A stretch of DNA of 62,776 nt, the filler included, from Sphacelaria rigidula (lineage: Eukaryota), in NCBI GenBank assembly GCA_964200075.2. It is 10 parts of 10 records of this genome, joined end to end, with 100 filler letters (N's around TTAATTAATTAA, not from the genome) between each part and the next. Parts side by side here need not be neighbours in the genome. Positions count along the whole stretch, not along the records: positions 12,577 to 18,764 come from CAXNAA020021640.1; 9 more parts are not named here. One strand, 5' to 3'. A model generated the notes under the pieces. The model saw only the letters and a list, made by a program, of their open reading frames with translations. It did not search any database and was not told the DNA's origin. The position numbers and the translations under genes are program-made. This document shows, one piece after another, positions 1 to 43,741 of this stretch. Each line of letters begins with the position of its first letter. Within the stretch, counting starts at the first letter, position 1.

Positions 1-61
1 AAGACAGATATGCCACTTCAGCCCCATATTTTGTATGAACCCCAAAGTATAAAATCGGCTG

Positions 62-113
62 TCATTTGTTGCTTGCCTTGGTCGTTTGACCATTGACCAC
101 GCATCCCTTTCGA
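62..113 (-). repeat. Copy of the dispersed ~65-bp module CTCCGTCTCGAAAGGGATGCGTGGTCAATGGTCAAA..ATGAGTAC-polyC
   Basis: Reverse complement matches 12378-12441, 18690-18764 and 32338-32411. Confidence 0.85.
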
Positions 114-267
114 GCTCCAGCGGGGGGGGAGGGGGGAGTTTATCTGGACCGCTTTCTTCCACGAAACTCCACTTCAATCACCATGACATCGAGATCCGCT
201 TCCTCGGGTTCCGACCGGGACGGAACAGATTCATGTTCCTGGCTGAGTCATGGTCCTCTGACGAAAT

Positions 268-782
268 TGTCAGGGATGCCCTACAGCGGTGGATTCCGTG
301 ACATTCCCTCGCTGCAGCCTGTACTTTCGAATCCCGTTGTTAGATCCGAGGGCAGGGGATTGCCCCCGGATGAGTCCCTGTCCCTGAACATACGTGTCCA
401 GGATGACCATACAGCTGTTCAATTGCTTCAACCGTGACACCCCCTTCAATGACGGTGAACATATATCTTAACACGTCATGTTACGGATCGCGGCGTAGGG
501 GTGGTAGGGCAATACGATGATGGGTCCGTCGACCTGACGGATGAATGACTCGGAGGGCTGACTGGGGGAACTGGCAAGTGCCGCAGTCAGGGGTGAGGAT
601 GTTTGGATCCCTTGGTGACGGATACATGAACATGCCTCCTTATATCCGGCTTCGATTCAGCTCTTCGCGTACGAGTCCCAGCTGGTACACCCTGGTGATC
701 ACTTGAAAAAGTGCTGGTGAACGACACTAATGGAAAAGAGAAATTTCATCGCCTCTAAACCTGTGACCAAGACACCCTGACA
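268..782. mobile_element. Possible solo LTR
   Basis: Bounded by 8-bp inverted termini TGTCAGGG...CCCTGACA (TG...CA rule); no target-site duplication found. Confidence 0.25.
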
Positions 783-1714
783 TTTAGGATGAGCTATTCT
801 GCGTTGAACTGATCATCCCTTGTGCTGGATACCGCTTGCTCTCACCATTCTGCGTTTTGCTGTCCGATAGCGGTGAGCCAGTACATACAGTCAGTGCATA
901 CATGAATAAATATGACGCGTGCTTGCTTGAAGACGCCAAACGTTTTAGGTTATGCCCCATCGTGTGATGTTTCCGCCACCACAGCACTTGTGCAGTGATC
1001 ATGGCTAACCAATGCAGTTGAGACAACAGTAAAAACGAAGTAGTGTACGGACAAGTCTGGGGCCTTCTCCCCCAACTGTCCGTAACATGGCGCTTTTAAC
1101 CGGGACTATAGTGTTGATTGTATTATTCGTGGTGCATGGATCACTCCTCCTCACGATTTTGCTTAATGCGGGTGCTAACGAAACATCAGTTGACGTGATG
1201 CTTCAGTCCTCATATGTTCAATAATATATAAAAGGATCGAAGTGCAAGTTCGTGGTTCGCTTCAATGTGACAACCGTGATTGTAAGGTCTGGGAGTGTGT
1301 AGCAGCGCACAAAATAGTCAGCAATAATAGATGTGACACCCTCACTGTCGATATACTTCGAGCACGCGCTGATTCAAGCAGCACCGACTGCTTGATCAAG
1401 TAGAAGACAGCTCGTACAACACCACATGTTGAGATGGAAGAAATCAAACAGAGGTATGACGCAAATATATATATATATATATATATATATTGTCACGTTG
1501 AATACCATCGGTATAAATGAGGGGAAAACACATACACTGATCAAGGAAGGGCGAGAGGTGCGGACGTACACCTTCATCAGCTCCTCCGTAAGCTATGAAA
1601 AATGTCCCTCATTTCTTCCGATCGAGAACGCTCAGCACACCGAAGACAACTCTACGGTTGTTCTTTCTCACTTTGAGAAGTACAACGAGAACAACATCGT
1701 TTCCAGAACTAGTG

Positions 1715-1973
1715 CGTGACACTTTCTACGATAGCCTCCCCCCCCAGAACCAGCCCAAAAGTGTCCTTCAAAAAATGGCCATACAGCGCCTGATGTTTGT
1801 ATTTAGGCTGCATAAAGCGCTTCATATTGGCGACATTAGCTAGAGCGAACCCAAGCGTGGGAATTCCCAGCTGCTCGTTGTGCTCGGCTTTTCCCAAATC
1901 GACTTACGTGGAGATTTTGCCCCCCAAAAACATGCACTTTTAGGGGGGGGGGGCTATAGTAGAAAGTGTCGCG
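1715..1973 (+). mobile_element. MITE family B (~260 bp; TIR CGYGACACTTTCTACGATAGCC)
   Basis: ~22-bp imperfect TIRs with TG/TA flanks; full-length homologs at 9884-10137 and 12836-13113. Confidence 0.8.
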
Positions 1974-2342
1974 TATCGTCGGGTTATCCGCCGCTCATTT
2001 CTTCCAACAATCTCGGGACATTATACTGTATCTTACGCTCTTGCATCTCACGCTGTTTCCCATGAGTCAAATTACCACATGATCAACATCCTCCCTAATT
2101 TTGCACATTGAGAACTTGAACACATAAAAACAAATGCACTCATAGAAATCGGTGAAACGCTTCAAACTTCAAATCCTAAAACAAATGTTCCCTACAAGCA
2201 CAGTCGCGTCCAAGTTAAAACCGAAATATGTAGCCTAGCCTCGACTTGTGGCACGGATTTCACGAGAATATACTTACCCCTATTGGGACACACTGAGTTA
2301 AACCTCGCGGCGGCATCTCAATCAAACGGTTCTTAGCTTGAC

Positions 2343-5300
2343 ATATCACCCGTACAAGGTACAAGACTGATGCCTCAGTCGACAACGTTACCTGAGTTAC
2401 TTTATGTCCATCAAAACATTCCTGAGATACAGGAAACTATCCATAGGTAACGGCTACGTCAGCACATCAGTATGCTGTTGAGCTGTCGGGACATGCTCCC
2501 CTTGAATGATCTGCTCAGACACCAACTCTCTCAACAAGCAATGACGTATATCTATATGTGTACTGTTGTGGGAGCTTCGCGGATTATTCTCGAGCTGAAT
2601 AGCTCCCTGGTTGTCCTCGTATACTGTCACCGGAATGCAAAAATCCTTCCTCTGCGGTTGCATGAATTTCAGTACCGCCTTCACAAAAAAAGCATCCTTC
2701 ACCACATCCCTCATTGCTACAAACTCAGCTTGAGTCGTAGACAACGTTGCATTGTTCTGAGTCCGAGAAAACAATTCAACCACAACCCCACAGAAAAATC
2801 TTGCCCCTCCCGACAATGAACGTCGATCGTCGAATTTTGCACAGTCAGCATCCGCATATACGCTACCAACTCGTCGCCCGAACCCCTGATATACGTAATC
2901 GCTAAATCTACCGTTGCCCTCAGGTATTAAAAATCCTCAATACTTTGTGCCAGTCTTCTGTTGTCGGGTTTTCGTTCTGCCTGGACGCAGCTCTTACGGC
3001 ATCGGCGATGTCCGGGCGAGTGTTGCTGGGGAGCCACACCAGCGATCCTACCGCCTCGCGATACCTCCCCTTAAAGTCTTCTCCCTCATCGACCTTGAAA
3101 GAAGGTGTAACATACGAGTCATCCTACGATAGGGGGGGGGGTATGTGGTTGCACGAAAAAAGAGGCTCGTAGGTGTGTCAGACGACCTGCCACACTTGCG
3201 TTGCGCTTGCATTTGGTTTCGAACTGTGTCAGGCGATATAGATGAGCGTTATTCATCCACAACAAGCTCGTTCGAACAACCGTTGCTGCTTTCAACGACA
3301 ATTTGACTCGGAATTTCGTGCAAGAAGTGGCCCAAAATATCCCCCCCTATCGTAGGATGACTCATACGCGGGGGTCGCTGCCGTCCCAGCGATGGAAAAC
3401 CTGATTAGAATCCGTTGGGTATATGCAGCCTGTGACAACTTCAGAGTACCCTTCTCGAGATTGTGTCTGTATTCGCACCCCGCATACACAACCAGTTCTC
3501 CACGAGTGTTCGTCAGAAAGTGGTAGTTGAGATCAGCAGTCAAATTGTTGCACACAACCTTATCACCCACAGCAAACATGTCATCGACATGCACCACAAT
3601 CAGAACCTCAACCTCCTCCGCGTCCATCAACTTGTTTATGCACGGGTCGACCTCACTCTGGTCGACGTCCAGACTTTTCAGAGTTTTCCCTAGCTTACCA
3701 AACCATTCTCTACCCGCTTGTCGAATCCCGTACAAACGTTTCCACCGCTTTGTTCATTGCATCAATCCACGCTTTCTTGAAATGAGAATTGTTTACATGC
3801 TTTTCCGTCTTTGGTGCTACCTCCCTCTCATCAAGAGTAGCACACGGAATCATCTCCAACTCAGACTCCCCTGTTTTTCTTGGATCGTCGGTGTCGCCCA
3901 GGAATGCCAGTATCCTGTCAGCGCCCCACAAATCTTCCGTCGTTACTCACAACGGACTGTGATCGCCTTCTAGATGTTTTAGATCAGGAACATCTTGATG
4001 CAGTCGCTGTTCTTGGCCTTGTTGCTGTAGCAGTCGTGTCTGTTGCCTCATCTAACCCAGCGTCGACTCAGCCGAATCTAGTTGGTTCGCGGTATATCCG
4101 CCACCGACAGACGATGTCGCCGTTGAATCACAACCAGAAGACCGTGCAGACAATGTAGGCGACGTAGGCGACGCAGGTGGCTGCTCCACTGTGTTCTCGC
4201 GGTCGTCATTGTGTGGTCCCTGCTCAGGTTTCGACCGCTCATCTCCATCTCTTTCACGCTCCTCGGACACCGCATCATCCATGATTTCTCCCCCCCACTC
4301 CGAGGTCCGACTCCCCTGAATCAGAGTCCTAGGCATCGCCCTCCCCGCCCTCCACATTCTGCGAGATTTCCCCACCCCGCCTAGAAAATGGAACCGCTGT
4401 TTGCGAACTTGAGGGGGGTAAACGGCACCAAGTGACATTGCGAGTGGTGATGACATGTCTACCCTTCGTTTGCGTTCTCATGGAGTCACGAGGGTACTTG
4501 TAATCAGATCCTAAGTAAAAACACTCCTGTGCTTTGGGCATACTCTTTGACGTTCTCTTGTGCTTAATATACCCCGCCTTGAAGAAAGTTAAAATCTGAA
4601 TCTGTGGTACTACACCATAATATAGTTCATCTGGAGACTTCTTACCAGGGCCAACCGTGGTAGCAGAGCGATTTAGTGCGTCTGCTGCCCAACGATACGG
4701 TTCAGCCCACATTCTTGCCGGAGCACCGACATCGTACAGTACCTTCGCCTAAATTTGAGCAGCTATAGCGGCTTGCTCAATCATTGCTATTGCACTTTCA
4801 GCCACACCGTTATACTCAGGACTGTCTGCTGGGGTGTACTCCTGTCTAATCCCTCGTGCCCTGCACACGTCGCTGAAAGACCCAGCAAACTCTCCACCGC
4901 CGTCCGACCATATAGTTTCCACCAGCGAGGGGATGCACTTTGCACCTACTTCTGCGAGGTACCGCTCGATTACTCTCGTAGTGTCAAACTTGTGTCTCCC
5001 GAAATACATCCAGATTTTCCACGAAAAATCATTCCGAATGAGAAAAAAATAGCTCATATCCCCGTACTCTCAACTAACTTCGGTCCGAACGCATCCATGA
5101 ACACTTGTTCGAACGTTTTTTCTGCTCTAGGATTGGTTGAGGTCGGAATGGGCTTTCGCAGCCCCTTGGCCATGGAGTACCCCTTGCACTCCTCCGACTT
5201 TCCCACCAAAGACACCCCCTGCTGTTTCGCGGCTTCCCGCAACAAGCCCTCATGCAGATGGCCATGAGATTGACGAAACAGATTGGTGTCCACGTGATCG

Positions 5301-6188
5301 AGGTTAATTTTCATCTTTCGAAGGGCGAGAACAGCATTGGCAGACTCATCGTGGTCAACTTTGCGATCCGTCGAGGTGGTTGATGGTGAAACTCGAGTGA
5401 AAACCATTATATCGTCCCTTCCTACTTAAAAACCACCCCTCTCTCATCAGGCAAAGTAATGACGGTCCCTCTCTTCGTCACACTAATCGGCAAATCATGT
5501 TCCACGGCCACACTCTGCGTCGAAAATAAATTTACGTCCAACTCCGGGACATGTGCCACTCTGTTGGTACCGAAATTGGATTGACCATCGTCACGAACTA
5601 TTCATACCAACTGTTTCCCAAGAAGTGTTATCGGTACTTTATGGCTGTTTGCTACACTCGTAATCACGCATTCTTTCCTTCGATAGAGTCATGTGGCATG
5701 ATGCTCCACTATCCGCTATCCTAACCTCCTTGCCCCCTTCATCTAGAATCGGGCAGCCATCTTATACACTGTCTGCTGCGGACGCGTGTTCACCAGTCTT
5801 TGTCTCCGTTGCGACGTATCCAAAATCTCCGGACTCCTCGACATTGTCCGATATACACATCGCAACAATCTTCTGAAACCCCTTGGAGTGTCCCTTGCCT
5901 TCACTTTCTTCACAGATACGTCCAGGGCATTCCGATTTGAAATGACCGGTCTTCCCGCACTTGAAACACGTTAGATTCTCCCTTCCAGTTTTCTGTGTGC
6001 TTGTTGGAATACTGCCGCCAGTATTTCCAGTCGTACCACCGGTACCCTGAACCTTAATAGTGCTGTGTGCTGTCGATGGTTTTGGCGACCTACTCCCACC
6101 CCCTTTACTCTTACTCTTGAGGGTGGAACCTATAACAACGAATTGTGCGAATTGAGGTTTAACTTTGAGATGAGGTTCAAGCCTAAAA
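2343..6188 (-). mobile_element. Degenerate Ty1/Copia LTR retrotransposon, gag-pol broken by stops and frameshifts
   Basis: Minus-strand motifs in Copia order: CCHC knuckle CFKCGKTGHFKSEC (~5925-5970), protease IADSGASCHMT (~5686-5720), pre-integrase HGHL..C (5054-5407), integrase SDGGGEF/TPADSPEYNGVAE (4749-5057), RT YGIRQAGREW/VHVDDM (3292-3735) and YREAVGSL..TRPDIA (~2990-3065), RNase H LSTTQAEF/EDNQGAI/HIDIRH (2454-2816). A putative 3' LTR begins TGTCAAG at 2343. Confidence 0.95.
3115..3364. mobile_element. MITE family A (250 bp; TA target site, Tc1/mariner-type) inserted in the Copia RT
   Basis: TIRs CGAGTCATCCTACGATAGGGGGGG / CCCCCCCTATCGTAGGATGACTCA; TA at 3113-3114 and 3365-3366; removing it restores the RT reading frame. 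Confidence 0.92.
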
Positions 6189-6288
6189 NNNNNNNNNNNN
6201 NNNNNNNNNNNNNNNNNNNNNNNNNNNNNNNNTTAATTAATTAANNNNNNNNNNNNNNNNNNNNNNNNNNNNNNNNNNNNNNNNNNNN
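6189..6288. other. Artificial contig spacer (44N + TTAATTAATTAA + 44N)
   Basis: Identical 100-nt spacer recurs every ~6288 bp; the palindromic core places stop codons in all six frames. Confidence 0.98.
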
Positions 6289-7315: not shown

Positions 7316-10300
7316 TCTTTGAAGGAGAATCAAGCGATGGAGCTGGAGCAGCTGGAGAGTATCGTTCACGCCGCTTTGGAAATGGCTCTCGACTACAAGG
7401 TACGTGTGCCATCTTGTGTCCGTCATGCGGGATGCACCGGGTCTCATCTTGAAGAGATGGGAAAAAAATGCGCCCCGGGAGCGAACCAATTCATGATGGT
7501 CTGGATAGGGTGATGGGGTTTGAATGTCGATCGTAGAGCTATGCCGCGATAGCCCGCCTACAAACTAGCGCCAAAACTCGTACTAGGAAAATTGCCACAT
7601 CGCGCATGATCCCTGGCTTCAGACACCTGAAGCGCTGGCGAGAACTATCTCGAGCGTGGGAGTCCCCAGCTGCTCGGTGTGCTCGCCTTCTGTCATTGTG
7701 AATCACATATACGGGGGTTCGATTCCCGATGCCTTGGATTTTTCTTCGTAATGTATGATTTCCACCGTGGAAAGCGTGAGAACGTGACTAAACAAAGTAG
7801 TCGACTGTGTTCGTGTGATGTGAGTTGACGCGGTGCGGGAGTGCTGACCCAGTCCGCGAGACCAAAATGAAAGGCACGTACCGAGGGAGAGATGGGTTGA
7901 TCCCTTGAGACCACGAACTCATCCCGAGAAAGGGGAGGGGTTCAAAGTGTGGGAAAAAAAAGAAAAAAATGTAGTTGTTGCCTCCTCAAAGCAGCTACTT
8001 TCCTTGTGAGGATTATCGCGGCATCAGTCCTTGATGTTTTTTGTTGTGCTGGTTTCCGTTGCGGAAGGCGTGAGGATGTGAAGTGGTGGTGTCGTGATGT
8101 CGACGTGCTGCGGAAGTACCACTATAATCCAGTGCCGGATGATGAATTTCACGGTAAGTACTGGGGGAGAGATGAATTGATCCCTTCAAAGCATGGTCTC
8201 GCCCCAAGGAGAGGGGTAGGGAGGGTGCTAGAAGCATGGTGACTAGATACATATATATATATATTTTTTTACGCACACTTTGAACCTCTCCCCTTTCGGG
8301 ATGAGTCCGTGGTCTCAAGGGATCAACCCGTCTCTCCCCCGGTACGTGCCTTTCATTTTGGTCTCGCGGACTGGGTCAGCACTCCCGCACCGCGTCAACT
8401 CACGTCAAACAAATCCAGTCAACTACTTTGTTTACTCACGTTCTCATGCTTTCCAGGGTGGAACTCATACATTACGAAGAAAAAACCCAACGCATGGGGA
8501 ATCGAACCCCCGTTCTCTCCACCCTAATGGCGACAGTCGGACCATTACACCACCGGGGCTCTGCGATACAAATTTGCGTACGTGCTGCTCCATCTTCGAC
8601 GAAGTTTCAACCGCCTCTTCCCTCGGGACGAGTCCGTGGTATCGAGAGATCAACCCATATCTCCCCGATACTAGCCTTGCATTTTGTTATCGCGGATTGG
8701 ATCACGACCAACATTCCCGCACCGCTTTGACTCCTGTCGAACTTCCCTTTCCTGCTTGCTCACGGTCCCACGTTCTCGGGCCATTTGTTGCGCGATTGGA
8801 GTTCTTCTCACATTTCAAAAGGTGATCTTGACACGTTCGCACAAGGTTTTTCCAGGAAAGCGTGCTGAATTGTCATTGCTTGCCTCAGAGTGAGTGGGTT
8901 AGGAGTTGCCTGAAGACCTACCTATCTAGAAACACGCGATTTTACAAATTGTGCATCACGTTTTTTTTTCCCATGAAGCTTGAGAACCTTCATGAGCATC
9001 GGAATATTTTGGGAAATGTGCACTCTCAGGCTGTGATCTGTAGCCTCGCTCATCCAACTCAAGTCCACCCGCAGTTTGTGAAATCGCGTGTTGGTTCCGA
9101 ATAGTTTCGATCCCCGTTCATTATATTACGAGAAGGTTGTTCCAATTGTCCAGAATCCCGTGTAAACACGGATTGCGCACGAATTTTCGTGTAGGATACG
9201 CGAGGGCACACATCACGGCCGGAGACTGCATTTACATTATTTTCGAAAATATTTCTATGCTCACAAAGGTTCGAAAGGCTCTGAAATGAAATACACGCGG
9301 AATTTGTAAAAACCCGTCCTTGCGTACTTTCCCGCTTCCCCCGAGGTCCGGTAACCGAAAACCATCGGCAACATCTTTCTTGTACAGCGGAGACTGGGTT
9401 GCAACGCCTTTTCTCGATCCAATCCCCGATGTTGATAATTGTTGGGGAAAAGCTGACGGTGATTTTATCGCAACTGGGCCTCTTTAGAAGCGGACAGGTC
9501 CTCTAAATAGGCCTTAGAGAAGCCGAACCCAGACTCACGCGAGGTAAACAGGTTCGCGCATTTTGGGAGACAGAAGCTCTCGTGCTAAACCTAGAAATCA
9601 CATTTTTGAACTGAAACGAAAATGCTCAGAATTGAAAATGAACTACGACGGAAACCATGTGTTGCAAAAAAGAGACATTCTGCCACATTTATGCAAAAAA
9701 AAAAGCTTCCAGGTTATGCAATAAGTAAAATTGTTGTGTCGGGATTCGAACTCGTGACCTCCGTCAATGGAGCCTTCTCTATCAATTGGACCAACACAGC
9801 GCAGCGGTATCACTCAAGAAGTTTTACACGCAGCCCCAATATGTAGGGGTTTTGAGCCGAAATGTTTACAAGGATATCTTGCACGCAAGACATTTTCCAC
9901 TTACCCATCCCCCAAAATCAGCCCAAAAGTGTCACGAAAATATGGCCATACAGCACCTGATGTTTGGGTTCAGGCCGCATGAAGCGCCTCATATTGGCGA
10001 CATTGGCTAAAACGAACCCAAGCGTGGGAATTCCCAGCTGCTTGTTGCGTTCGGCTTCCCCCATTTCGATTTACGTGCAGATTTTGTCTCCCAAAATCAT
10101 GCATTTTGGGGGGGGGGCTATCGTAGAAAGTGTCGCAATTGAAATAAATGTGTAACCGAAGTAACCCCGTTGTTTGTGTTGTCTTCATGGAGTTATGACA
10201 TTATCTAAGTCTCACTCAAAAATCAAATCGCTTTAACTTTTTTTTTTTCCTTGGTTTGCTTGAGACTGTTCCGCGTGTTGATGATGCAAATCTCGTGTCG

Positions 10301-10752: not shown

Positions 10753-12134
10753 CTTCACTGCTGCGGCGGACTGCAGTTTTTTTTTCTTTCTTCATTGACG
10801 GAAGGAGGAAACCCAACCCAACACTTACCCCGCTAGCGAGTCTCGCAAGCGAGTTCGTGCGCCGATTACCCGAAGGCTCGGCTAGACTACCTCGCGGCAG
10901 TCATGTGGGGAAGGCGCCTCGAGCGGTGGCTCAAGGCAGTATAGGCGACGCTCCCACTAAAACCCCTATCAACTTGGTGCAGTGCACACGCCGCCCTGCT
11001 CTTAGAAGCTTCGGCCCTAGGCGGACTGCAGATGGTACTCTCCCACGCTCAAATACAAGAGGTTATCAACGTTAGAAGCCGGATGAGATAGTGGTGTGCG
11101 CGTGTTTGAGAGAAGGTGTGGGTGGGTGCGTGGGGTGTGTGCACGCGTGTTCGGCTTCGTAGAGTACGACCTATTTTTCACCAAGACAAGATTCCATCCA
11201 GTTAGCGTGACTACACGAAGGTGATGGGGACGATAATTGCCACGTAACCTGCCATGTAACCTGCAAGTAATATCCGTCCGTTTTGGTCATTCATTATCTA
11301 GCGAGCCTGATATGTGATTGTTGAGGATTGCCTTTTTATTTAGGCTTAGGGTCTTTGTTGTGGGGGACGGTATGTATTCCGTTTTATTGGCTCAATACAT
11401 ACCATGTTGCAGCGGTAAGTCGTACAGAAATTGTAGCACCCATGCTTACATGAGACGTGTATTTTTGTTCCTAATTTTGATCTCGAAAGTCTCGTCCATG
11501 CGATCTTTGATCCTTCACTGGTCGATTGATCGATTTAACAGTGATATTTACCCCTCGTGTACGCATGTAAAGTGCCCCCCCCCCGCTCTGAAGAGATTCG
11601 AACAATACTACCTTGTTCTCCATCCAACTCGACGTTTGCGGCATTACCAGGAGGCTTTTACGCGAGTCCGTCAAAAACTACCGTGTATGTCCACGAGAGA
11701 TTTAGCGTTGACGCTTGAATGTTTGAATCTTCCAGGGGGCTAATAGCTCCCCAAGCACTCGCCAGCGTGCAGTAAGAGGCGTTTTTACTCGAATTGGCAC
11801 CCCACATGCGGCGCCTGTTGTACTCTGCCAACACACAGCTTCAAGGGTCGGACAAATCAACGATTCGTCTGGAAATCACTTGGTTCTAGTGTCATCGATT
11901 CGTACTGTACGAATCAATCCTTGGGCTTCGTTTTCAGCGTTGCAACTCAGGTACGCGCAGCCCAGGCACGTGGAATGGCGCAAAAGCTGCGTAGAGATCT
12001 TTTCGATCAGCGTTCAACTTTTTCTTCTTGTTGAGCAATCAGGCCTGAAAAATCTTGGGTACTGGTGATTCGAACCGGCGATTATTCGTCCGAAGCGTGC
12101 ACAGTTTGCCTGAGTCACATCTTGCCCCCCGCCT

Positions 12135-12378
12135 CCTTTTAGGGGTTGCACTTTTAATTTCCGGGTCTCTTTTTTGTTGGAGCCCAAATATATGGGGCTT
12201 ACTGTGCAACACAAATATCCGGGGACCGGACATGCAGATGCACGCGGGGGCCTTTTCGTTAATCGGCATAATTTGCAGCCTTTTTCAAGTAAAAATGATG
12301 TCGATTCCCCAAATGACCCGTCCAACACCACGAGAAACATTTTCGCTAAAAAAGTGCTACCCCTATCGTAGCATCACT
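12135..12378. mobile_element. MITE related to family A (TIR GAGTGATGCTACGATAGGGGTAGCACTTTT; left TIR partial)
   Basis: TAGGGGTTGCACTTTT at ~12140 versus AAAAGTGCTACCCCTATCGTAGCATCACTC at ~12350-12378. Confidence 0.6.
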
Positions 12379-12476
12379 CTCCGTCTCGAAAGGGATACGT
12401 GGTCAATGGTCAAACGACCAAGGTAGGCAACAAATGAGTACGCACACCCCCCCACCCCCCCCACAAACCCCGCACA
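12378..12476 (+). repeat. Dispersed ~65-bp module with a poly-C tract at the contig end
   Basis: Matches 18690-18764 and 32338-32411. Confidence 0.85.
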
Positions 12477-12835: not shown

Positions 12836-13113
12836 AGGACACTGTCAACGATAGCCCCCTCCCCAAAAGTACGCCCCCCCCCCCCAAAAAAAAAGTGCAT
12901 GGTTTTGGGAGGCAAAATCTACACGTAAATCGAAATGGGAAAAGTCGAGCACAACGAGAAGCTGGGAGTTTTCACGCTTGGGTTCGTTCTAGCCAGTTTC
13001 GCCAATATGAGGCGCTTTATGCAGCCTGAACCCAAACATCAGGCGCTGTATGGCCATTTTTTTCGTAACACTTTAAAATTGGTTTTTGGGGGAGGCTATC
13101 GTAGAAAGGGCCC
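12836..13113 (-). mobile_element. MITE family B copy, inverted
   Basis: Reverse complement is colinear with 1715-1973. Confidence 0.85.
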
Positions 13114-15124: not shown

Positions 15125-15862
15125 ACGTGGCCAATCGGCTCCCCCTCATCATTACTCTAGAGTATATTATATACTCTACAGGACATATAATCTAGACTGT
15201 CTACCGGTCACCCCGATGGCTCAGTTGGTAACCTCGAAGCCTTCTGACGGTTGGGTCGTGGATTCGAATCTCGGAGCGATCTGGGATTTTTTCTCATGCC
15301 CAACAGTGGAGAGTGATTATGTCGTGGGTACACAAAAGTCGACTTCACGATCGACGAGGGAAAGGGACTGCTGAACCCCTCTCGCGATAAAAAATAAAGG
15401 CAAGCACCGCAGAAGGAAGGTGGAGTACTAAAATAAAACGAAAAGAAAAGACTCCTGTGTTGACCTTCCTCCTGTGTGACCCCGGCTGGTGCGCCCACAT
15501 ATACCGAAAGGTGTAGACCGGCGTGCAGAGTAGATGGGACGACAATACACAACGCACACACTGTCAGTTTCTTCCAAAGCATACGGTATGTGACAGCTCT
15601 GGAGTGCAAAATATCCCATCTGGAGTTAATTGTCACGAGGGTTGTACCTCGAGAGTATTTCAGAAAAGAAAAACACTCTGGAGGGTCAAGATTGCTCGAG
15701 AGTATAGGGTACGCGAAACCTGTAGACGGCGCATATTTTTCTGGAGGGCTTGATGTCCTCCAGAGGATTATAGAGGACTGCAAACTAGTGACCCATACAG
15801 AGTATTACGAATACTCTGAGGGGTGAAAAAAACTACGCTGGATGGGAGCCGATTGGCCACGT
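15125..15862. mobile_element. Non-autonomous TIR element (19-bp perfect TIRs) containing a SINE insertion
   Basis: ACGTGGCCAATCGGCTCCC (15125-15143) / GGGAGCCGATTGGCCACGT (15844-15862); no clear target-site duplication. Confidence 0.75.
15202..15559 (+). mobile_element. tRNA-derived SINE family 2, full length
   Basis: A box TGGCTCAGTTGG, B-box variant GATTCGAATC, CA-rich tail; target-site duplication ACTGTC at 15196-15201 and 15560-15565; homologs at 44016, 47385 and 50021. Confidence 0.88.
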
Positions 15863-16579: not shown

Positions 16580-17543
16580 TAGGGTTGTAAGTGGACCGTT
16601 TTCAGGGGTTGATTTGATACTTGATTTTTTCTTCCAGATCGGGTTGATTTAATCATGATTGGTTGATAAAAACCTACTGATCAACAACACGTCAGTTAAT
16701 CAACGAATCATGATCACTTGATTTTTTCGGTATAATGGAAGCAGCACACAGGCCAAAAAACGACTGAATTATGTCGTGTAATGATGTAGAGCACACGGGC
16801 ACGCATGGGCAAGCCCACAACAGCAGCACAGCAGTATTGTGTTTTAAATTGTTGAACAATCACATACGCGCTGATGTGATTATTGATATAAATCAAATCG
16901 ACTTTTTGAATCAAAATCAATCCTGATTCATGGGTTGACTTACAACCCTAGATGCTAGCGTCTTTTCGGGAGTAGAGTCGATAAGTAGACATATCCGTCG
17001 ATCAATAGTTGCGCCGCAGGCAGAAAAACACGTTACACGACGCAAACGCCTCTTATCTTCCTGGAAAAAATCAGCGAATCAAGATTAATCAAGTTATTTT
17101 GACTTGGTTGATTTAAGTTGATTTCTTTTTTCCCTCACACTTTGAACCCCTCCCCTTCGTCGGGATGAGTCCGTGGTCTCAAGGGATCAACCGTTCTCTC
17201 CCCCGGTACGTGCCTTTCATTTTGATCTCGCTGATTGGATCAGCATTCCCGCACCGCGTCAACTCACGTCACACCAACTCATTCGACTAGTTTTGTGTAC
17301 TCACGTTCTCACGCTTTCCACGGTGGAAATCATACATTACGAAAAAAAAACCAACGCATCGGAAATCGAACCCCCGTTCTCTCCATCCTAATGGCGACAG
17401 TCGGACCATTACACCACCGGGGCGCGGCGGACTAGTTGATATAAATCAACGAATCAGGGACGCGCTGATGTGATTGTTGATATAAATCAAATCAACTTTT
17501 AAATCAAAGTCAACCGTGATTAATGAGTCGACTTACAACCCTA
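16580..17543. mobile_element. Non-autonomous hAT-like element with a duplicated right end
   Basis: Left TIR TAGGGTTGTAAGT at 16580; right TIR ACTTACAACCCTA ending at both 16950 and 17543; GCAAGAAG at 16572-16579 and 17548-17555; many GTTGAT/ATCAAC subterminal motifs. Confidence 0.8.
17123..17433 (-). mobile_element. tRNA-derived SINE family 1, full length, nested in the hAT-like element
   Basis: Close match to 8252-8564; probable target-site duplication AGTTGAT at 17116-17122 and 17434-17440. Confidence 0.88.
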
Positions 17544-18482
17544 GCTAGCAAGAAGCGAAGGCATCGATTGGGCGTTCATTAGGTCTAGCGACAGCTCGCA
17601 TGATGAGAGGTGGGGAACACGGAGTTATCACCACGCTACCTGGGGGCGAGGCACGGCAAAGAAATAGTGCCGGCGAACATGAGAGCTAGACAGAAACTGG
17701 TCGCGAGCTTGGAGAACAAGAGAGACCGGGACATTATTTTACAGGCCGCTTCTTCGGCTGCTGTTATGTCCAGGCGGCAGGTCATTCATGATACACGATA
17801 GCACCTCTGACCGCCGATTGGATCTTGGCTCAACCGTCGTTGCTCACACCTGTGTGTGTGAGAATAGTAGCGGTGACGGGAATATCGCCTCGGTTCCGAC
17901 GACGATGTGTTCTGTATCGCACAGAGGAACGTCCTGTCCAAAAAGAGAGGCAGAGAGGCACCGATCTTTGCACTGGTCAGCGCGACCAACAAAACACGAA
18001 TACATCAGTGAAGATGCGACAAGCCAAGCCTCATCGTTTTATTGGGTTCTTCAACTCACCGCCTGCCATGTAAATGCTGACGGAAGGGCTGGCAAACGAT
18101 ATGTACAGTAGTATCGTGATGGCAATCTCTCGACCGATTGGGAATCACCCAACAAAGACACACAAAAGGACACAGGTGAGGATTTTCCTCTCCCCAGTTG
18201 TTCCTCCGGCGCACTCGTCATCGACGCACGTGTACATCGAATGCATTGGGTGCACCCAGTCACATCTGCTGAAGTTTTGACACAAATGAAGCAGCCGAAA
18301 GTGCTATTCCTTGTGTAACTATTTTGGCTGAAATTGTGAAATTCCGACTGCAGGTTCAACCTCACCGCAATGTTGAACCATATTTTCGAGGAGACCCTCT
18401 TTATTGAAGGTTCGATCTCAGCAGATGGTATGATATCTGCGCGTGATTTTTATCGGGAGTGGTGTCTGACTGTGTTGCGCGC

Positions 18483-18685
18483 GTGTGTTACCATCCCATC
18501 TATTCTGGACGCCAGCCTACACCTCCTGGTGTATGTTGGCGCATCTATTTGGGCATGAGTGTCGTTTCTGCGTAGGTCCTTTTCCACCGAAGCCATGTTG
18601 CAGAGGCCGACCACTTCTAGTTTTTTTTCCTTGTCTTTTCTTTTCCTGTCCTTTATTTCGCTTCCCTTTCCCCCCCTCTTTTTAG
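18483..18685 (-). mobile_element. Retroposon 3' fragment sharing only its last ~60 nt with the SINE family 2 tail
   Basis: Minus strand ends TGCGCCAACATACACCAGGAGGTGTAGGCTGGCGTCCAGAATAGATGGGATGGTAACACAC, matching 15490-15550; the upstream part is unrelated to the SINE. Confidence 0.6.
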
Positions 18686-18689
18686 TCTA

Positions 18690-18764
18690 CTTCCGTCTCG
18701 AAAGGGATGCGTGGTCAATGGTCAAATGACTAAGGCAAGCAACAAATGAGTACGCCCCCCCCCC
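18690..18764 (+). repeat. Dispersed ~65-bp module with a poly-C tract at the contig end
   Basis: Matches 12378-12441 and 32338-32411; preceded by TA. Confidence 0.85.
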
Positions 18765-18908: not shown

Positions 18909-21000
18909 ATAAGCGATCACCTCACATGGGCGGGGGCTAACGCCGCTCGCGCCCACGGCCTCAAACACGCCTGCCATGTCACATGGCCACTCTTTATGCT
19001 GGAGGAAGCTGGTTTATTGCCCCCGCGCTCTCTGGCGCGCTACGCGGGGATATGCGCACGCCAGCTGCGGTCTTGTCGACTCGCTCCCGCGTGCGTCAAG
19101 CCGGCGGGGCCTCCTCGTGCGATGCTGAACCGTGTCACCCAGCATTGCTTGGGCGGTGGGAAGGGTAGCTCTGAAGGAGGGCTAGTTCTCGTGACATCGA
19201 GTTTCGGCATCGAGCCACCGAGACCGCTGCCCCCTTTCATTAAAATGATTGGCCGTGGGCACAAGCTAGAGACGGTCGAGGTGCTTGCCGAGCATGCGGA
19301 ACTGAAGGTGAAATATTGGTGGGATTGGACGACAGGAGCGGGCGGTAATGCCTACCTGCCTGGCATCGATGTACATTTACCCCGAGAGGCCAATTTTCCC
19401 CCAATTACTTCGGGATGTATCACCAGGGGGGGAGAAATGGAACCTCAGTTTCTTATAGCATCGAGACCCCGCATTACCATTAAGTCGTCAGAATTTTTCG
19501 TTCACACGAGTTCTTCGAGAAAATGAAGGTTGGCTTCTTACCGTTCCCGGGCGATGGAATTACGTGAACTGCAGCAAACGGAAATGTATGCATTAGTCCT
19601 TGCGGACAAATAAGGCATATCCCAAATGTAGACCACAGGGTATGGCGGTTCATTTGTGGCAAGTTTGGCGCTCCGGTGTATCCTCGATACTTTGCCCGAC
19701 TAGCTCTGACGTCGAGATACTCGCGGCTCGAACGGATGGATGGAAGTTGCTCAGGTCTTCAGCCCGGCCAGGACAAGCAAAAACGATGGATCTCACGCAT
19801 AACCCGCCTTATCAACCTAAGAAACACACTTCTTTCGGGTGACTGTGTCTATCCTCATAATGATCGCGATGCCCGCTGACAGGCGTTTTTGGACGCTAAC
19901 AACAGCGTGGTGTATGTGACCTTCGGTAGCCGTATATCGCCCCCGGCTTCACTTGTGCGAAGCGTTGGAGAAGGGCTTCTGGCTGGAGGGTGGGCGGTCG
20001 TATGGTCGCTTAAACATGAGCAGCATTCATACTTGCCTAGTGGTAAGTGAGGGCTGTGAAAAGACGATGCCCCAGAATAGAACTGGATATCTTCAAGCGG
20101 CCGATACATGATACATGCCGAGATTTGTCAGGACCTCTTAACTTCACTATGTCGACTTGTGGAGTGCTCGTGTTTCTACTAGTGTTTCGGCCAGGTCTTT
20201 TTTGCGTAGTAATTACACCAGTTTTCCGTTGCCGATCACAGGTTCTGGACGGCATTCAGCAGGCAGCGCTACGCCCGCTCGTCGTTGCCTCTTGCGCCGC
20301 TGATTTCTGTGGTTTTCGTCTTGTTCGCGTGCACTGCAACAGCCGCCCTGCAAAGTGGGAGGTTTTTTGTGAGACCCTGGCTGCCGCAAGGAGCGGCATT
20401 AGCGCATCCCAACATCAGGGCAGCTGTGAGTCTCCCGTGATTCTGGAGGTTTTTCCACACTTATCATGACGCACATCAGAATCGTTTCGCCATGGAAAAT
20501 TTACAGTGCGTGCCAACATCGATTCACTGCCTCTGACCCAACAAGTTTGTCGAGCAGCAGGGGCATCTTGTCTCAACAAAACGTCCCATCAGCCCACAAC
20601 CTCTGTCCATCTGCAGCCGCTTCCATCACTACCCTCCCCTGCCCCCCCTTCCCCTTCCACCCGGAACCTCCAGATTACCCACTGTGGCATGGGTGGACTG
20701 TTCGAGTGTGCTGCTAATGCGGTCCCGGTGATTCCACTCCCGTTCTCTCTCTCAGCCGATCAGCCAGTCAACGCACGCGCCGCAGAAGCCGCAGGTTTCG
20801 CCGTGCGTCCCCGCCGGTCGCGCTGGCCTGCGCGTTGGTGGTGCGGCGGCGACCCGGAGGTAACGGCCGCCGCTATCACGGAAGCCGTGGATAGGGCGGT
20901 GCACGACCCGATGGTGTTGGAGGGAGCGAGGCGGGCGCGGCGCGCTGTTTTGGCCGCGGGATATGGTCGAGCGGCCGTTGACGCCGTTGAGTCAGCGTGA
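18909..21000 (+). CDS. Family-1 UDP-glycosyltransferase, 5'-partial; exons 18909-19307, 19883-20042, 20343-20425, 20674-21000
   Basis: Phase-consistent GT-AG exons totalling 969 nt; motifs LVTSSFGIEPPRPLPP..IG, ELKAFLD..VVYVTFGS, and the UDPGT/PSPG box WLPQGAALAHPNIRAAITHCGMGGLFECAANAVPVIPLPFSLSADQPVNA. Confidence 0.92.
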
Positions 21001-25209: not shown

Positions 25210-25965
25210 AGCCTGATGCGGCGAAAACCCGGCGTGCTCCGTCCCGGCTCTGTAAGGACGGACCCCCTAGGGGGTTGTCGTCGGTTGGCACTGACACTGT
25301 AAACCACGCCACTCACTGCGTAGGCTAGGCAACCAAGTAACCGTTTTTTTGTTTTGCGCGCTTGCGTTTTTTTTGTGGTGATGATGGTGGTGGTCGAGCT
25401 AGATCATTTTGTGTGGTGTGGGAGAACCTCGATTCTGCGCAAAGGAAATAATCATACGACGCAGTGTTCTTGAGTGGTGAGACCCCCATGAGGCAGTAGT
25501 CTGATGCTACGGTAGGGGTGCACATATATTTTCCTATATCCTTGTGCTTCTAGAATCGTTGGGAGCCCCTGAACCAGACTTGATTTTGCACAAAAAGTGC
25601 ACCCCTAATGTAGCATTGCTCAATGTGTGAGCCGTGGCTGTCTCGGGAAGTGGCGATACCAGGCAACAAAGCAACTCATTGTAGGCTGTCACCTAAATGC
25701 AAGATAATGTGGACGACTCGGGTATAACAATTTTAGCAGGATGTAGGTCACATTTCATGCGACTCGCTGAACACATCACGGCGCTTCGCGCTTGGTGATT
25801 GAATACGAGCCTGGTCCGGTGAGAACTCATCGTGCTCGAGGTCAACTGTCGTATGACTACGGCATGTATGATCATGAATACATCCCCCCGTGAATTTGTA
25901 GGGATGGATGCGAAGTCAACTGTCGTATGAGTACGGCATGCATGATCATGAGTACATCCCCCCGT
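25210..25965 (+). repeat. Dispersed ~600-bp repeat with an internal tandem module (homolog of 54440-54950 and 56220-56489)
   Basis: Colinear over several hundred bp (GTCGAGCTAGATCAT, GGAAGTGGCGATACC, CACGGCGCTTCGCGCTTGGTGATTG). Confidence 0.85.
25499..25622. mobile_element. ~125-bp mini-MITE related to family A
   Basis: TIRs ATGCTACGGTAGGGGTGCAC / GTGCACCCCTAATGTAGCAT; absent from the homologous repeat copy at ~54685. Confidence 0.75.
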
Positions 25966-26379: not shown

Positions 26380-28911
26380 AATTTTCATCTTCTCTACAGC
26401 AAAATTGTTGGTATTATCTCTTCGCACATCTTTCCTCTACTCTTTTTACTGGATGCAGATCCATGTGCACCAGGGTGTGCATACGAGCAAAAAAAGATTT
26501 AAATAGAAATATCAACAAAAAGTTACTGAAAATAATAAACCACCCTACGTTCTTCGGAAAACTCGAGATAGTAACAAACGAAAAAAGTGCAGCAGAATGG
26601 AAGCTATGCCCAATTGGCCACCGCCCCCCCCCCGCCGCCACCACAAACCACTCGACACAGCTATAAATCATGACAAAACACAAGAAAAAACAGGCAGGGA
26701 AACCGACGTTCATGTAATGAATGGTTGTTTTCCGTCCGCCCTCTACAGGTAAGCATGTTGAAGCGACTCAAAAGCCACGGAATCAATCGTAACAACAATA
26801 ATAGGATGCAGCACCAAATAAAAAAAATTACCCACGTTCCGACCCTCAAAATAACATCTCCCCGACTCCTCGACGAGGTACAGTGAGCTTCCTTACGAAA
26901 AATACGCTCAAAGGAGGGCAACAGAGTAACACGACAGTGGCGACCCGAACGGGTCTCCGAATCACTGTTCCGTCCGCCTCCTCCGCTCAATTTCACGTGA
27001 ACCGAAAAGGGGACTTGTGTACGTTCCTCACCTACATTGTCCTTGACACACAAAGGCACACACACACACACACACACACACAGATAACTCTGAACTGAGA
27101 CAGGCTTTCCCGTAATCATCCATTATCGTCACAATCATCCGCCATCACGATTCTTGACTGAAGATCAAGAGAGACGTACTATTGGCGAAAAAAAAAAAAC
27201 GCTCGCATGTCGTCGTGCTCTTGTCCTCCTCGCTCTTTTCCAGATTCTTGAGTGAAGACCAAGCGTTTGGACACATCCGATCTCTATCAAAATATGTAAA
27301 TACAAACGCTTTACATGAATGGTATTATATATATACCTAGTCTAGATACGGGGTCACAAGCAATGAACGCCACCAGTACCTAGGAAGTCAAATAGGCACC
27401 TGCAGTAGTAGTAGCAGTAGTAGCAATGGTAGTATATGCTTTCCGGTGCTAGGCACCTCAAAACCGTGCTACGACTGCTATCGACCCCCGGGCAAGTTAT
27501 CAAACAAGCAAGGTCACCTACACCACTTACGTATTCCGATTTTCATACACCCCAAAAAACATGAAACTCACAAATCGAACAAGCAACCCTTCACCTCTGC
27601 CTGGGCTTACCAAGGTAAGCTGAAACGTCACCTTCCCTCTTTTACGTCCTTGTCATGGGTAAGGTATACATATATGTATATATATATGTATATGTATGCA
27701 AATGAATTGCAAATTATGTCTCCCCTCCTCCGCCCCTCCCCTCACCCCCGAAAAAAAAGAAGCAAAGAACCTCGCTCGGAGGGAGCGAGCACTAGGCACT
27801 TCAAGAAAGAACCAAGCTAACAAGCAAGCAAAAAGTGATGACACACAAGCAAACCACCCTGCCTGGCAGCGCTGTTCTATGATGGGGGCGAGCACGCTGC
27901 TCCAGCTACTACAGCAGGTGGACCGATAAAAGATTGCACCTACTGTAAAAAAAAACTGAGACAACCCTCCCACCCAGCCTGCTATACAAAACCCTGGGGA
28001 ACCAAGAGGTGCGTTTTGTTCCGCCCCAATAGTTACCCATCATCCATCTCATCCGCAGCGCTATGTGAGAGCGCGCACGTGAAATATACGGGGACTCAAA
28101 ATATATCATCCTTGTCTGCGGGCTATCGAATTGGTTCGTGTGTGTATGTATGTGTTGAGTGTCACCCAATGCACCCTTCACAGAAATCTCCCACTTCCTC
28201 TCCCCCCCCCCCTCCCCCCTCCTTCTCGCTATGACCATAACAATCTTATTCCTACTACTGGCGTGACAAATCAGCAATAATCGCGATCATAGAAACGTAC
28301 TGTCATTTGGCTCACGATGAAGAATGATCAGGAAGAATAAAGTTGGTCATAACAATCTTATCGCGCTGCCGCTTCTCCTCTATTAGGGGCACTAAACGCG
28401 CTGTCCATACACGCGTTCACATGAATGATCAACACCCATAAAACGATGTAAGTAGATGACCGCCTCACCGCTGGGCAACTAGAGAGCATGATATACATCC
28501 TACACTATATCGTTGATAGTCCTGCTGCCCCCCCCCCCCCAACCCTCCCCGTTTGTTTCCCTTACGTGGGGCACACGTTTCACCGCAGAACCATAATAGT
28601 CCCGAATTCCCCACCCACTGCGTTTCTAAACAATGGGGAGGGTAAAAGCACCGCGCAACGTACCGACATCAGCCTCTCTTTCCCTCTCCTCACCTCTCTC
28701 TCTCCCTCCCTCTCTTCGATACACTTGAACACACACAAGTTCAGCTTGATACAAAGTAAAATTCGTGAAACATAAGAAAAAAAAATAAGTCACAGCCACA
28801 TTCACACCTCACGTTCACATCCTGACATCCCCATGTACACATACACGTACCACGTACACATCCACAGCACATTTGTATACCGGTCGTTTTTTATATCTAT
28901 ATCTATCCCAA

Positions 28912-29010
28912 CCGGGGAGAGATGGGTTGATCCCTTGAGACCACGGACTCGTCTCGAGGAAGGAGAAGGGTTCAAAGTGCGACAAATAGCATTTATGAAT
29001 GTAAAAAAAA
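28912..29010 (+). mobile_element. 3' tail fragment of SINE family 1
   Basis: GGGGAGAGATGGGTTGATCCCTTGAGACCACGGACTC..GGGTTCAAAGTG. Confidence 0.8.
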
Positions 29011-30192: not shown

Positions 30193-31111
30193 CTCGCACA
30201 CGCCCACAATTACGTACCACGAACTTGTTCTCGTCCGCGTTGTGAAGCTTGACCGCATCAGCATCGGAAAGGAGGCGGTTGGAGTACAGCCGGTTGCGCT
30301 TAGGTCGCCCATCAGACCCAGGAACTTGCGGTTGATCCGCCCCCCTATACATGAAGATTGCGTACCGTTCGTTTTCGCCGCTCACGGTAATGTTGTTACT
30401 GTACACCAAAGAGTCTGAGGCACCCATCGACCATCGGATTCCATCTGGAGAAAAAACGCATTTTTCGGGTCGAGGGGGCAGTAATGGTGGATGGGGCGGG
30501 GGAAAGGGGTTAGGTAGTGCGTCTGCTGGATATTTGCCCTACAGAGAACGACGAGATGCAACGCTGCGGTTACAGTGTGTCTGTCCTGTGATTACTCCTC
30601 CATTATTATTCTTTCATTCCTCATGTACTCGAAGAAAGGGTAGATTTGACGGGTTTTATTAGTTCATTTACATTTACAGTATGTGTCGATTGGGCATGTG
30701 CACCATAAAGTGTGCGCACGTACGTAGTGCACGTACGAAGTGTGCGCACGTACGTAAAAAAAGGGGACAGACGGACATATCTTGCTTTGCGCCCGTGATC
30801 GACGAAAACAACCCACCGATCAGTGATTGATTCTCTCGTATGAGTGAGGGAAAAAGCTGTTTGGCCCGCGCGCACACACACACACGAAATAACACCCACT
30901 CGGAGCTCACATGTATTGCGGTACAGCACGTTCCCCGCGATCTCGGCGAAGGAGCTCTCGTACAGGGCCAAGCCCGCGTCGCCGTTGTCGTAGACGGTAT
31001 TGAACTTCACGACGGCGTGGTCGCAGCTGCGGTGAAGCATGAGCCCGTTTCTGCCGTTGTCGTGCACGATGTTGTTCTGGATCGACACGTTGTCGCACCG
31101 CTTGGATGCAA
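29601..31111 (-). CDS. Mannuronan C-5 epimerase-like (AlgG-type right-handed beta-helix) gene, 5'-partial; exons 31111-30911, 30444-30218, 29882-(29709, 29649 or stop at 29601)
   Basis: Phase-consistent exons encode IASKRCDNVSIQNNIVHDNGRNGLMLHRSCDHAVVKFNTVYDNGDAGLALYESSFAEIAGNVLYRNTYGIRWSMG..YRGADQP..GRPKRN..CFDNESD, matching brown algal MC5E C-terminal motifs (IASKRC, LHRS.D, DAGLA..ES, YGIR.S.G, GRP). Confidence 0.88.
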
Positions 31112-31340
31112 CTATTTTTGTCGTTTTGTTTCGTTGGGGTCGTTTCGGGTAGTTGTGCATTGTTGTCGTGGTCGTTGTGGTTGTCGTCGTCACCATCATT
31201 GTGGTTGTTGTTGCCAAGGGGTGAGGCAGAACAGTTTCAACACCCGAGCGCGCACGGGAGGAAGGGAGTAAGCGTGGGGAGGAGGGGGGGGGGGGGGGGG
31301 GGGTGGGTTGTGTTGGGCCGTACCGGGGAGGGGGTGCGGG

Positions 31341-31440
31341 NNNNNNNNNNNNNNNNNNNNNNNNNNNNNNNNNNNNNNNNNNNNTTAATTAATTAANNNN
31401 NNNNNNNNNNNNNNNNNNNNNNNNNNNNNNNNNNNNNNNN
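31341..31440. other. Artificial contig spacer
   Basis: 44N-TTAATTAATTAA-44N. Confidence 0.98.
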
Positions 31441-32337: not shown

Positions 32338-32411
32338 CTCCGTCTCGAAAAGGATGCGTGGTCAATGGTCAAACGACTGAGGCAAGCACCAAATGAGTAC
32401 CCCCCCCCCCC
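32338..32411 (+). repeat. Dispersed ~65-bp module with a poly-C tract
   Basis: Matches 12378-12441 and 18690-18764. Confidence 0.85.
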
Positions 32412-43470: not shown

Positions 43471-43741
43471 AGGCCCATGCTCTTTTATACATTTAGAGTT
43501 GGGCCCTGAAATTTAGTATTGACAGTGCGTAGGGCAGAGAAAAAAAAATTACTGAAGTACCAAAAGTTTTTTTTCTCCATAAGTTAAGGGCATTTTAGTG
43601 ATACACCTGAAAACCGATTACTGCCCTTAACGCATGAAAAAAATAAACTTTTGGTATTTCAGTAATTTTTTTTTTTGCCCTATGCACTGTCCATACCAAA
43701 TTTCAGGGCCCAACTCTAAATGTATAAAAGAGCATGGGCCT
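43471..43741. mobile_element. Fold-back MITE, 271 bp, ~120-bp arms, AGGCCCATG...CATGGGCCT ends
   Basis: Arms 43471-43592 and 43622-43741 are near-perfect reverse complements around a ~30-nt loop. Confidence 0.88.

Follow-up and report, generated by a model that had tools for sequence, protein, structure and literature searches.

Two tRNA-derived SINE families in the brown alga Sphacelaria rigidula with homologous heads and middles and dissimilar 3' tails

The DNA of Sphacelaria rigidula analysed here, a stretch of 62,776 nucleotides referred to as the window, contains members of two families of short interspersed elements, F1 with an A-run and F2 with a CA-rich sequence at the 3' end. Both families are tRNA-derived SINEs. 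They are homologous from their first bases to a common ACCG, and 3' of this point their tails show no significant overall similarity. Probably F1 and F2 are sister families which descend from one ancestral SINE and of which one lineage has changed its 3' end. By analogy they would work like the CORE, V, Deu and Meta SINEs of animals, in which a common head and body is combined with exchanged 3' ends.

The window consists of ten short contigs of a 244-Mb assembly joined by nine N-linkers; bases 1-6188 represent one contig. A brown-algal host, as assumed in the first-pass annotation of the window, is supported by two proteins of a plastid-like contig that are identical to brown-algal records, and by LINE ends resembling those of Ectocarpus, with (CAA)n in one family and a C-run in another, provided that the window contigs and the plastid belong to the same organism. 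The label on the records matching the plastid-like contig is that of what we take to be a brown alga other than Ectocarpus, its class placement being presumed.

A genome search with the F2 copy at 15202-15559 as query gave 4611 first-look candidates, and the 40 that were scored were near full length and 87-91% identical to it. The F1 query (8264-8540) gave 4128 first-look candidates, the 40 scored ones being 90-92% identical and again near full length. From the best 30 aligned copies of each family a consensus of 295 nt plus the A-run was derived for F1 and a CA-tailed consensus of 353 nt for F2. In 200 kb of stretches picked without regard to similarity there were 12 F1 and 10 F2 matches including fragments, which scales up to roughly 15,000 copies and fragments of F1 and 12,000 of F2, a rough figure based on the longer contigs only. 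The two repeated tRNA-headed families with A-run and CA ends that had been proposed from the window thus exist in high copy genome-wide. Members of both are short, non-coding and dispersed, with a fixed 5' start, 5'-truncated copies and a simple-repeat end. Target-site duplications of variable length, as expected of tRNA-derived SINEs, accompany both families: duplications of at least 6 nt flanked 12 of 34 full F1 copies and 16 of 36 full F2 copies (8% in a control with mismatched flanks), and those of F2 frequently started with CA or ACA. Most F1 matches are old; 37 of 60 outside the seed copies were less than 80% identical to the young F1 consensus. Among the F2 matches 47 of 55 showed 85-95% identity, part of the F2 loci having come from tail patterns. 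The middle of F2 was no closer to old F1 (z 10.9) than to young F1 (z 13.6), and the split between the two families therefore predates the old F1 wave.

Within the window the single complete F2 copy lies on the plus strand at 15202-15559. It is 94% identical to the family consensus and is flanked by the duplication ACTGTC (15196-15201 and 15560-15565). Three more F2 copies, first recorded at 44016, 47385 and 50021, do belong to this family, but none of them is full-length. The first (44016-44077, minus strand) is a head cut by the contig linker at 43916-44015, and the last (50021-50202, plus strand) comprises the head and most of the middle before the linker at 50203-50302, so that neither carries a tail. 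The copy at 47385-47600 (minus strand) is 5'-truncated and retains the 3' part of the middle and the whole tail. A terminal F2 fragment missing from the earlier list, the last ~65-80 nt of the element, was found at 18466-18545 on the minus strand. Upstream it adjoins a different repeat, which has no link to the tail elsewhere.

F1 is represented by a complete copy at 17123-17429 (minus strand; A box 17406-17416, B box 17364-17372, RTE-type motif 17172-17181 and 17136-17143, duplication ATCAACT) and a near-complete one at 8262-8559 (minus strand; A box 8542-8552, B box 8500-8508, RTE-type motif 8308-8317 and 8274-8281, duplication TGTATC). The target-site duplications reported earlier for full copies of both families were thus recovered. 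A 5'-truncated F1 copy (7711-7969, plus strand) starts just before the B box. The fragment first noted at 8603 is, as suggested, an old and diverged F1 copy and no separate family; it covers the 3' part of the middle and the tail at 8614-8790 on the minus strand, its upstream limit being approximate. Tails of F1 without the rest of the element are present at 8158-8220 (plus strand, old), 28911-28982 (plus strand) and 44792-44859 (minus strand), and an additional old copy that had been overlooked, about 70% identical, comprises middle and tail at 56672-56886 on the plus strand.

The F1 and F2 consensus sequences were compared part by part, each alignment being scored against 2000 dinucleotide shuffles. 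The middles (15279-15409 in the complete F2 copy) were identical in 95 of 153 positions (62%; z 13.2), a score reached by none of the shuffles, and the homology claimed for them in the first-pass annotation is therefore significant. Identity was 47/74 in the 5' part of the middle and 36/48 (75%) in the last block before ACCG (15364-15409). The heads agreed in 44 of 73 positions (60%; 8/2000 shuffles), although part of this similarity may be generic to tRNAs. The tails 3' of ACCG scored no better than chance (z 0.5; 572/2000), and the same was true for a reverse-complement control of the middle (659/2000). The divergence after ACCG, described earlier as complete, is real at the level of overall similarity, but both tails contain the sequence TG(A/T)GACC(A/C)CGG; their lengths, put at ~75 and ~150 nt, are 70 nt in F1 and 142 nt in F2.

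A global alignment up to ACCG gave 19, 13, 22, 16, 18, 16 and 20 identities per block of 30 columns, followed by 18 in the last 25, without any peak; the block around the B box and the T run (22/30) equalled the best. Because the similarity is even from the first bases to ACCG, it argues for one ancestral SINE and not for a core between unrelated heads. Likewise, middles that are 62% and heads that are 60% alike indicate sister families and no separately conserved core. A distinct core of the CORE type, which had been postulated for the two families, consequently did not emerge, the sole candidate being the 48-column block at 75%.

The number of tails attached to the middle was counted with a joint middle model, which was run over 957 kb of loci plus the window (0.4% of the genome, much of it selected for similarity to F1 or F2). 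Of 161 distinct matches, 76 continued into an F2 tail and 66 into an F1 tail, 13 ended early, 5 lay where a stretch ended and 1 had another tail; reversed sequence gave no match. The single other tail was a decayed F1 tail (z 4.5; 0/500). More than one tail therefore exists, as had been claimed, and no third was present among the 143 assessable middles in ~1 Mb, a sample small enough, and partly chosen by similarity, that rarer tails may still exist. A middle match behind an intact tRNA-Lys gene (loci L164 and L169) was considered as a third family and rejected, being a decayed whole F1 in a duplicated 3-kb segment; locus L165 has the same tRNA without F1. In this segment, present twice with 89% identity, the tRNA-Lys(CTT) gene with the F1 copy directly behind it occupies positions 1501-1860 on the minus strand of both loci. 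The second tRNA-Lys copy differs by two changes, one of them in the anticodon (Glu by ARAGORN), lacks a T run and is probably a pseudogene.

F2 is not confined to this assembly. Parts of it were present in 20 listed sequencing runs, and four runs labelled as other organisms (X14, X17, X18 and X20) were compared at 80% likeness. X14 and X17 cover both families in variants like those of the Sphacelaria rigidula assembly and may stem from close relatives or from DNA of the same alga. X18 and X20 contain the A-box region, the middle and the tail of F2 at very high depth, with substitutions of their own and a much shorter A-rich loop; their contigs bridge the F2 middle and tail and touch F1 in one short bin only. 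Hence F2 occurs in the runs of all four labelled organisms and whole F1 in two, and no new tail was seen on F2 in these four. As middle and tail are joined in the contigs of other organisms, F2 appears to have been inherited as a unit.

SINE superfamilies have been described as families over relatively wide taxa that share a central sequence, and comprise CORE, V, Deu, Ceph and Meta (PMC4824008); MESC and Snail (PMC4758252) and the bivalve HCD SINEs (PMC11481361) extend the list in molluscs. F1 and F2 do share a central sequence in this sense, 62% over 153 columns. Their centre is neither better kept than the head nor kept apart from it. Of the stramenopile analogue of such superfamilies that the first-pass annotation envisaged, the shared centre thus remains, together with only two tails and a probable partner for one of them. 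One could still argue for a true CORE-type superfamily, in which the ~48-nt block at the 3' end of the middle is a mobile, selectively kept domain combined with several heads and LINE tails across brown algae or ochrophytes. The 75% identity in this block compares with about 60% elsewhere, the 3' part of the middle is kept in 67 of 75 positions between old and young F1, the two families separated before the old F1 wave, F2 is present in other labelled organisms, and Ectocarpus has a pair of elements of similar outline (see below). We nevertheless consider such a superfamily unlikely: there are two tails only among the assessable middles, the heads are homologous as well, with the B box/T run block conserved as highly as any, in other organisms an F2-type tail still follows the middle, and the middle folds no better than shuffled sequence in either family (z 0.9 and -0.1).

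Where the tails came from was examined at the 3' ends of LINEs in the same genome. A search for reverse transcriptase (RT) gave 2794 candidates, of which 150 were scored; 20 LINE-type loci were read downstream, and their DNA similarity defined five families. The comparison used twelve 3' ends, which belong to four of these families (A 3, B 3, C 5, E 1). The other eight loci were set aside, three because they belong to the C-run-ended family, which lacks the motif, and five because the end was cut off, interrupted or unread. All twelve ends are built alike, with GACCACGG followed by a hairpin, A(A/T)GTG-GA and a short tandem repeat. The four families (loci L131-L150) are called RTE-type here because the (CAA)n end of family B is like that of RTE-1 and RTE-2 of Ectocarpus and because A, B, C and E are alike in RT, a label of likeness and not of a tree; Pfam and the protein atlas give family C a generic RT label only. 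They have in common GACCACGG, the hairpin, which is variable, and A(A/T)GTG-GA, and they differ in the terminal repeat, (ATCA)n, (CAA)n or (AAT)n. The combination of GACCACGG, hairpin and A(A/T)GTG-GA is a candidate for a compact recognition signal.

A two-part model built from the LINE ends alone was applied to the SINE tails and to 1000 shuffles. The F1 tail scored 27.5 bits, above all shuffles, and the F2 tail 17.3 bits, a weak result equalled by 33/1000; for four control stretches the figure was 139-762/1000. Aligned directly, the F1 tail resembled the five family-C ends (z 2.8-6.1; 0-32/2000) more than the other seven (z 0.5-2.0). Moreover, 4 of 71 F1 tails end in GTGCGACAA like LINE family C. 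One of them is the tail-only insertion at 28911-28982, which ends in AAAGTGCGACAA, an exact match to the family C ending. No part of F1 has been kept better between old and young copies than the tail (67/70, compared with 65/74, 54/76 and 67/75 for the other parts), as would be expected of a recognition signal. The likeness between F1 and the LINEs consists of two short motifs and no long identical tail, and young F1 copies have an A-run at the end where family C has (ATCA)n. The true partner family may therefore be unsampled or extinct. Judged by this correspondence of its last ~48 nt with RTE-type LINE 3' ends of the same genome, which is new here, F1 is probably an RTE-type SINE with an RTE-type LINE as its probable partner.

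For F2 the picture is less clear. Its terminal module (15475-15559 in the complete copy) contains the motif TGTGACCCCGG, a hairpin and the CA-rich end, and is the candidate LINE-derived part. The last ~75 nt of F2 start with the motif, present at 10 of 11 letters, and fold as a hairpin; 13 of 15 letters at the motif are as in the family C end, and the best direct alignment to a LINE end was equalled by 48/2000 shuffles. Motif and hairpin point to RTE. The CA end would fit CRE, since in Ectocarpus the CRE end is (CA)n (PMC12477816). In both families the LINE-derived sequence may be restricted to the last ~48 nt (F1) and ~75 nt (F2) and not extend over everything 3' of ACCG. No LINE with an F2-type terminal module was present among the 20 loci read downstream. 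Two F2-tail patterns, one with 56 matches (30 loci taken) and one with 12, detected F2 copies or 5'-truncated fragments only, and a DNA pattern representing a CRE-type RT motif had no match, a result which by itself does not show the absence of CRE. The suggestion that the tails come from LINEs is hence supported for one of them, by the match of the F1 tail to RTE-type ends; as no second partner was found, the proposed switch of partners can only be inferred.

The middle was missing from 14 of 110 distinct F2 ends, and upstream of these the sole common sequence was a repeat of 1.8 kb. The RT locus L131 had been considered as a partner LINE of F2 and was rejected, as its ~70-nt F2-type end lies inside this unrelated repeat and the LINE ends just before it. 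The repeat is ~1.8 kb long and non-coding (2420 first-look candidates; loci L181-L210, for example L186 at about 750-2600, and L131 from 2523 onward), has at least two 5' variants and carries the ~70-nt F2-type 3' end, a truncated retroposon insertion that was amplified as a passenger of another element.

The sequence common to both tails raises the possibility that no exchange took place and that both tails go back to one RTE-derived 3' end, having diverged by loop expansion and substitution while RTE LINEs were used throughout. In favour of this, TG(A/T)GACC(A/C)CGG is followed by a hairpin in both tails, F2 is close to the family C end at the motif, and there is a weak alignment between the tail of the old F1 consensus and that of F2 (z 2.2; 31/1000). 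The F2-specific stretch between ACCG and the terminal module (15410-15474), a predicted hairpin with an A-rich loop (fold z -2.1), has a short loop in X18 and X20. The corresponding argument fails for F1, in which the stretch before the motif folds like shuffled sequence (z 0.0). Furthermore, similarity between the tails is not significant, in contrast to the 62% identity of the middles, even though the tail is the slowest-changing part of F1, the ends differ in kind (A-run and CA repeats), and F2 duplications starting with CA or ACA suggest a different target preference. Divergence without exchange is thus rather improbable in our view.

A and B boxes were found in the heads of both families, in line with the original reading of these heads as tRNA-like. 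The F2 head (15204-15278; A box 15217-15228, B box at about 15260-15270) matched tRNA-Lys(CTT) best (z 9.5) among 47 tRNAs, of which only 11 are nuclear. ARAGORN called both heads only at a relaxed threshold, and at default settings neither ARAGORN nor Rfam found a tRNA in the window; the heads are too decayed for these defaults, which we count against the explanation preferred here. Both consensus sequences contain a single T6 run, located a few bases 3' of the head (15287-15294 in the complete F2 copy, including the CT behind it). Runs of at least five T followed the head in 32 of 48 F1 copies and 49 of 62 F2 copies, with CT directly after the run in 28 of the 32 and 37 of the 49. In comparison, 11 of 12 nuclear tRNA genes have a run of at least four T (T5-T6) starting within 40 nt of the gene end, the background being 17.5% of 40-nt windows. 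By its position the T run of the SINEs is therefore a local terminator that may stop most transcripts, which again counts against the preferred explanation. None of the 11 tRNA-gene runs is followed by CT. For mollusc SINEs, T4-T5 runs inside the element with C or CT behind them have been reported, with reference to yeast work according to which this context favours read-through (PMC4758252). Given this precedent, leaky Pol III termination at T6-CT is the likely reading. Pol III transcription of F1 and F2 would follow from their boxes; there was no RNA run among the 20 listed runs containing F2.

Descent of F1 and F2 from one SINE with a later change of the 3' end could be envisaged as follows. 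The ancestor would have had a tRNA-like head and a body of ~140-150 nt, and one lineage would later have replaced or remodelled everything 3' of ACCG. Pol III would initiate at the A and B boxes, and part of the transcripts would pass the T6-CT run behind the head. The full RNA would then be inserted by a LINE protein recognising its 3' end, and target-primed reverse transcription would give rise to 5'-truncated copies and to duplications of 6-13 nt. In F1 the last ~48 nt would provide the RTE-type signal (GACCACGG, hairpin, AAAGTG-GA), which matches LINE family C best and makes an RTE LINE the probable partner. The F2 module would keep the first motif and the hairpin and end in CA repeats, its partner being either another RTE family or a CRE-type LINE. 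Template switching is the probable cause of the tail change, which may have gone in either direction. That the elements were instead spread by Pol II read-through transcripts, T6 stopping Pol III and leaving a short tRNA-like RNA, is suggested by a T6 run placed where tRNA genes have theirs and is very improbable, since full copies start at a fixed point just 5' of the head with the duplication directly upstream, as for Pol III starts, and since CT follows the run in most SINE copies and in no tRNA gene. The three alternatives (a mobile central domain, divergence without exchange and Pol II origin) overlap in part.

No brown-algal tRNA SINE and no stramenopile central-domain superfamily came up in a literature search, most subscription papers being outside its reach. 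The words 'SINE' and 'SINEs' are absent from the main text of a preprint on 60 brown-algal genomes (10.1101/2024.02.19.579948), and a Phytophthora SINE is mentioned in PMC3429519. To this extent the elements can be called undescribed, as the first-pass annotation supposed, but the transposable element supplement of Ectocarpus lists a pair of possible SINEs of similar outline, compared here by description only: unknown4-N1_Ec32, (CA)n-ended, 432 bp, 658 copies, and unknown6-N1_Ec32, (A)n-ended, 321 bp, 2002 copies (PMC12477816). Their left ends are 81% similar, both were left unclassified, and CRE was suggested for the CA-ended one. Like F2 and F1 they are brown-algal, short and non-autonomous, with one CA-ended and one A-ended member and similar left ends. 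In contrast to F1 and F2, their rows in the supplement name no tRNA head, defined middle or RTE link, and the lengths found here are 353 and 295 nt. By this resemblance F1 and F2 probably have unclassified counterparts already listed for Ectocarpus. The library itself, as presented in that supplement, is curated and has no SINE category, SINE-like elements being left unclassified; F1 and F2, with their clear Pol III boxes and high copy number, fill this gap in annotation. The same source describes RTEX-N1, RTEX-N2 and RTE-N1, which are also brown-algal and non-autonomous and have only a short 3' end in common with LINEs of the RTE or RTE-X type (in RTE-N1 the repeat and 12 bp); their heads are of no assigned origin there, whereas F1 and F2 have A and B boxes.

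In architecture F1 and F2 are like the animal superfamilies, which combine a tRNA head, a common centre (61-86% in the Meta domain) and differing tails ascribed to template switching between LINE partners. In animals the described superfamilies contain numerous families from wide taxa, in many cases with unlike tRNA heads and several LINE clades; F1 and F2 are two families with homologous heads and one probable partner. The Angio-domain superfamily of flowering plants (cited in PMC9033089) demonstrates that domain sharing is not confined to animals, but its domain, of 37 bp, lies at the 3' end and not in the centre. As to the use of RTE LINEs, PMC3747384 tabulates several tRNA SINEs that depend on them (tobacco TS with RTE-1_Stu, Bov-tA, Afro SINEs and Mar-1) and that, like F1, have a tRNA head and a 3' end from an RTE-clade LINE. 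The stretch that TS has in common with its LINE is ~100 bases long and nearly identical; in F1 there are just two short motifs around a hairpin. The pairs considered here from that table are animal, amoebozoan, plant and green-algal, with no brown alga among them.

A wider reading would make F1 and F2 part of an old brown-algal superfamily extending from this alga to Ectocarpus and the kelps, in which one head-body unit changes its 3' ends at the RTE motif and a leaky T6-CT terminator limits the full RNA and yields a short tRNA-like by-product. We offer this only tentatively; if true, no earlier SINE superfamily with a central domain would be known outside animals, as far as our literature search could find. 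On the preferred reading of sister families, tail replacement on a common body, a principle known from animals and plants, would happen in a stramenopile too. The compact 3' signal, which four RTE-type LINE families have in common with a SINE, is directly testable, and insertions of F1 and F2 could serve as markers for brown-algal phylogeny.

The window contains several other repeats. A MITE-like element of ~260 bp with terminal inverted repeats is present at 11842-12093, 46121-46344 and 56591-56668 and in 18 copies in the sampled loci. The first of these has a B-box-like word and was considered as a SINE relative; its best score against both families was reached by 82/1000 shuffles, and the element is unrelated to the SINEs. 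Two long near-perfect hairpins (45272-45391 and 43471-43741), each found in 6-7 loci, gave sub-threshold Rfam miRNA matches and are probably of the foldback/MITE type. A repeat of ~230-270 bp with C-rich and G-rich inverted ends (1722-1972, 9909-10136 and 12875-13108) occurs in 15 loci. Another, short repeat lies beside G/C runs (62-114, 12372-12452, 18692-18764 and 32331-32411), was seen in 29 loci, often at contig ends, and judged by eye may represent the C-run-ended LINE family (RTE-X-like), of which it would be the 3' end on the opposite strand. At 25257-25878 and 54446-54949 there is a repeat of ~600 bp, found in 20 loci, whose T-rich stretches resemble a LINE 3' UTR. Fragments of a copia-type LTR retrotransposon (RVT_2, zinc knuckle) are located at 3295-3753 and 5765-6232 (minus strand). 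Elsewhere in the assembly, besides the plastid-like contig (C1), two tRNA-rich contigs (C5 and C13) carry mitochondrial-type genes, and as their proteins differ, one of the two may be another organism's. Genes in the window include UDP-glycosyltransferase exons at 20470-20997 and a beta-helix protein at 30624-31388.
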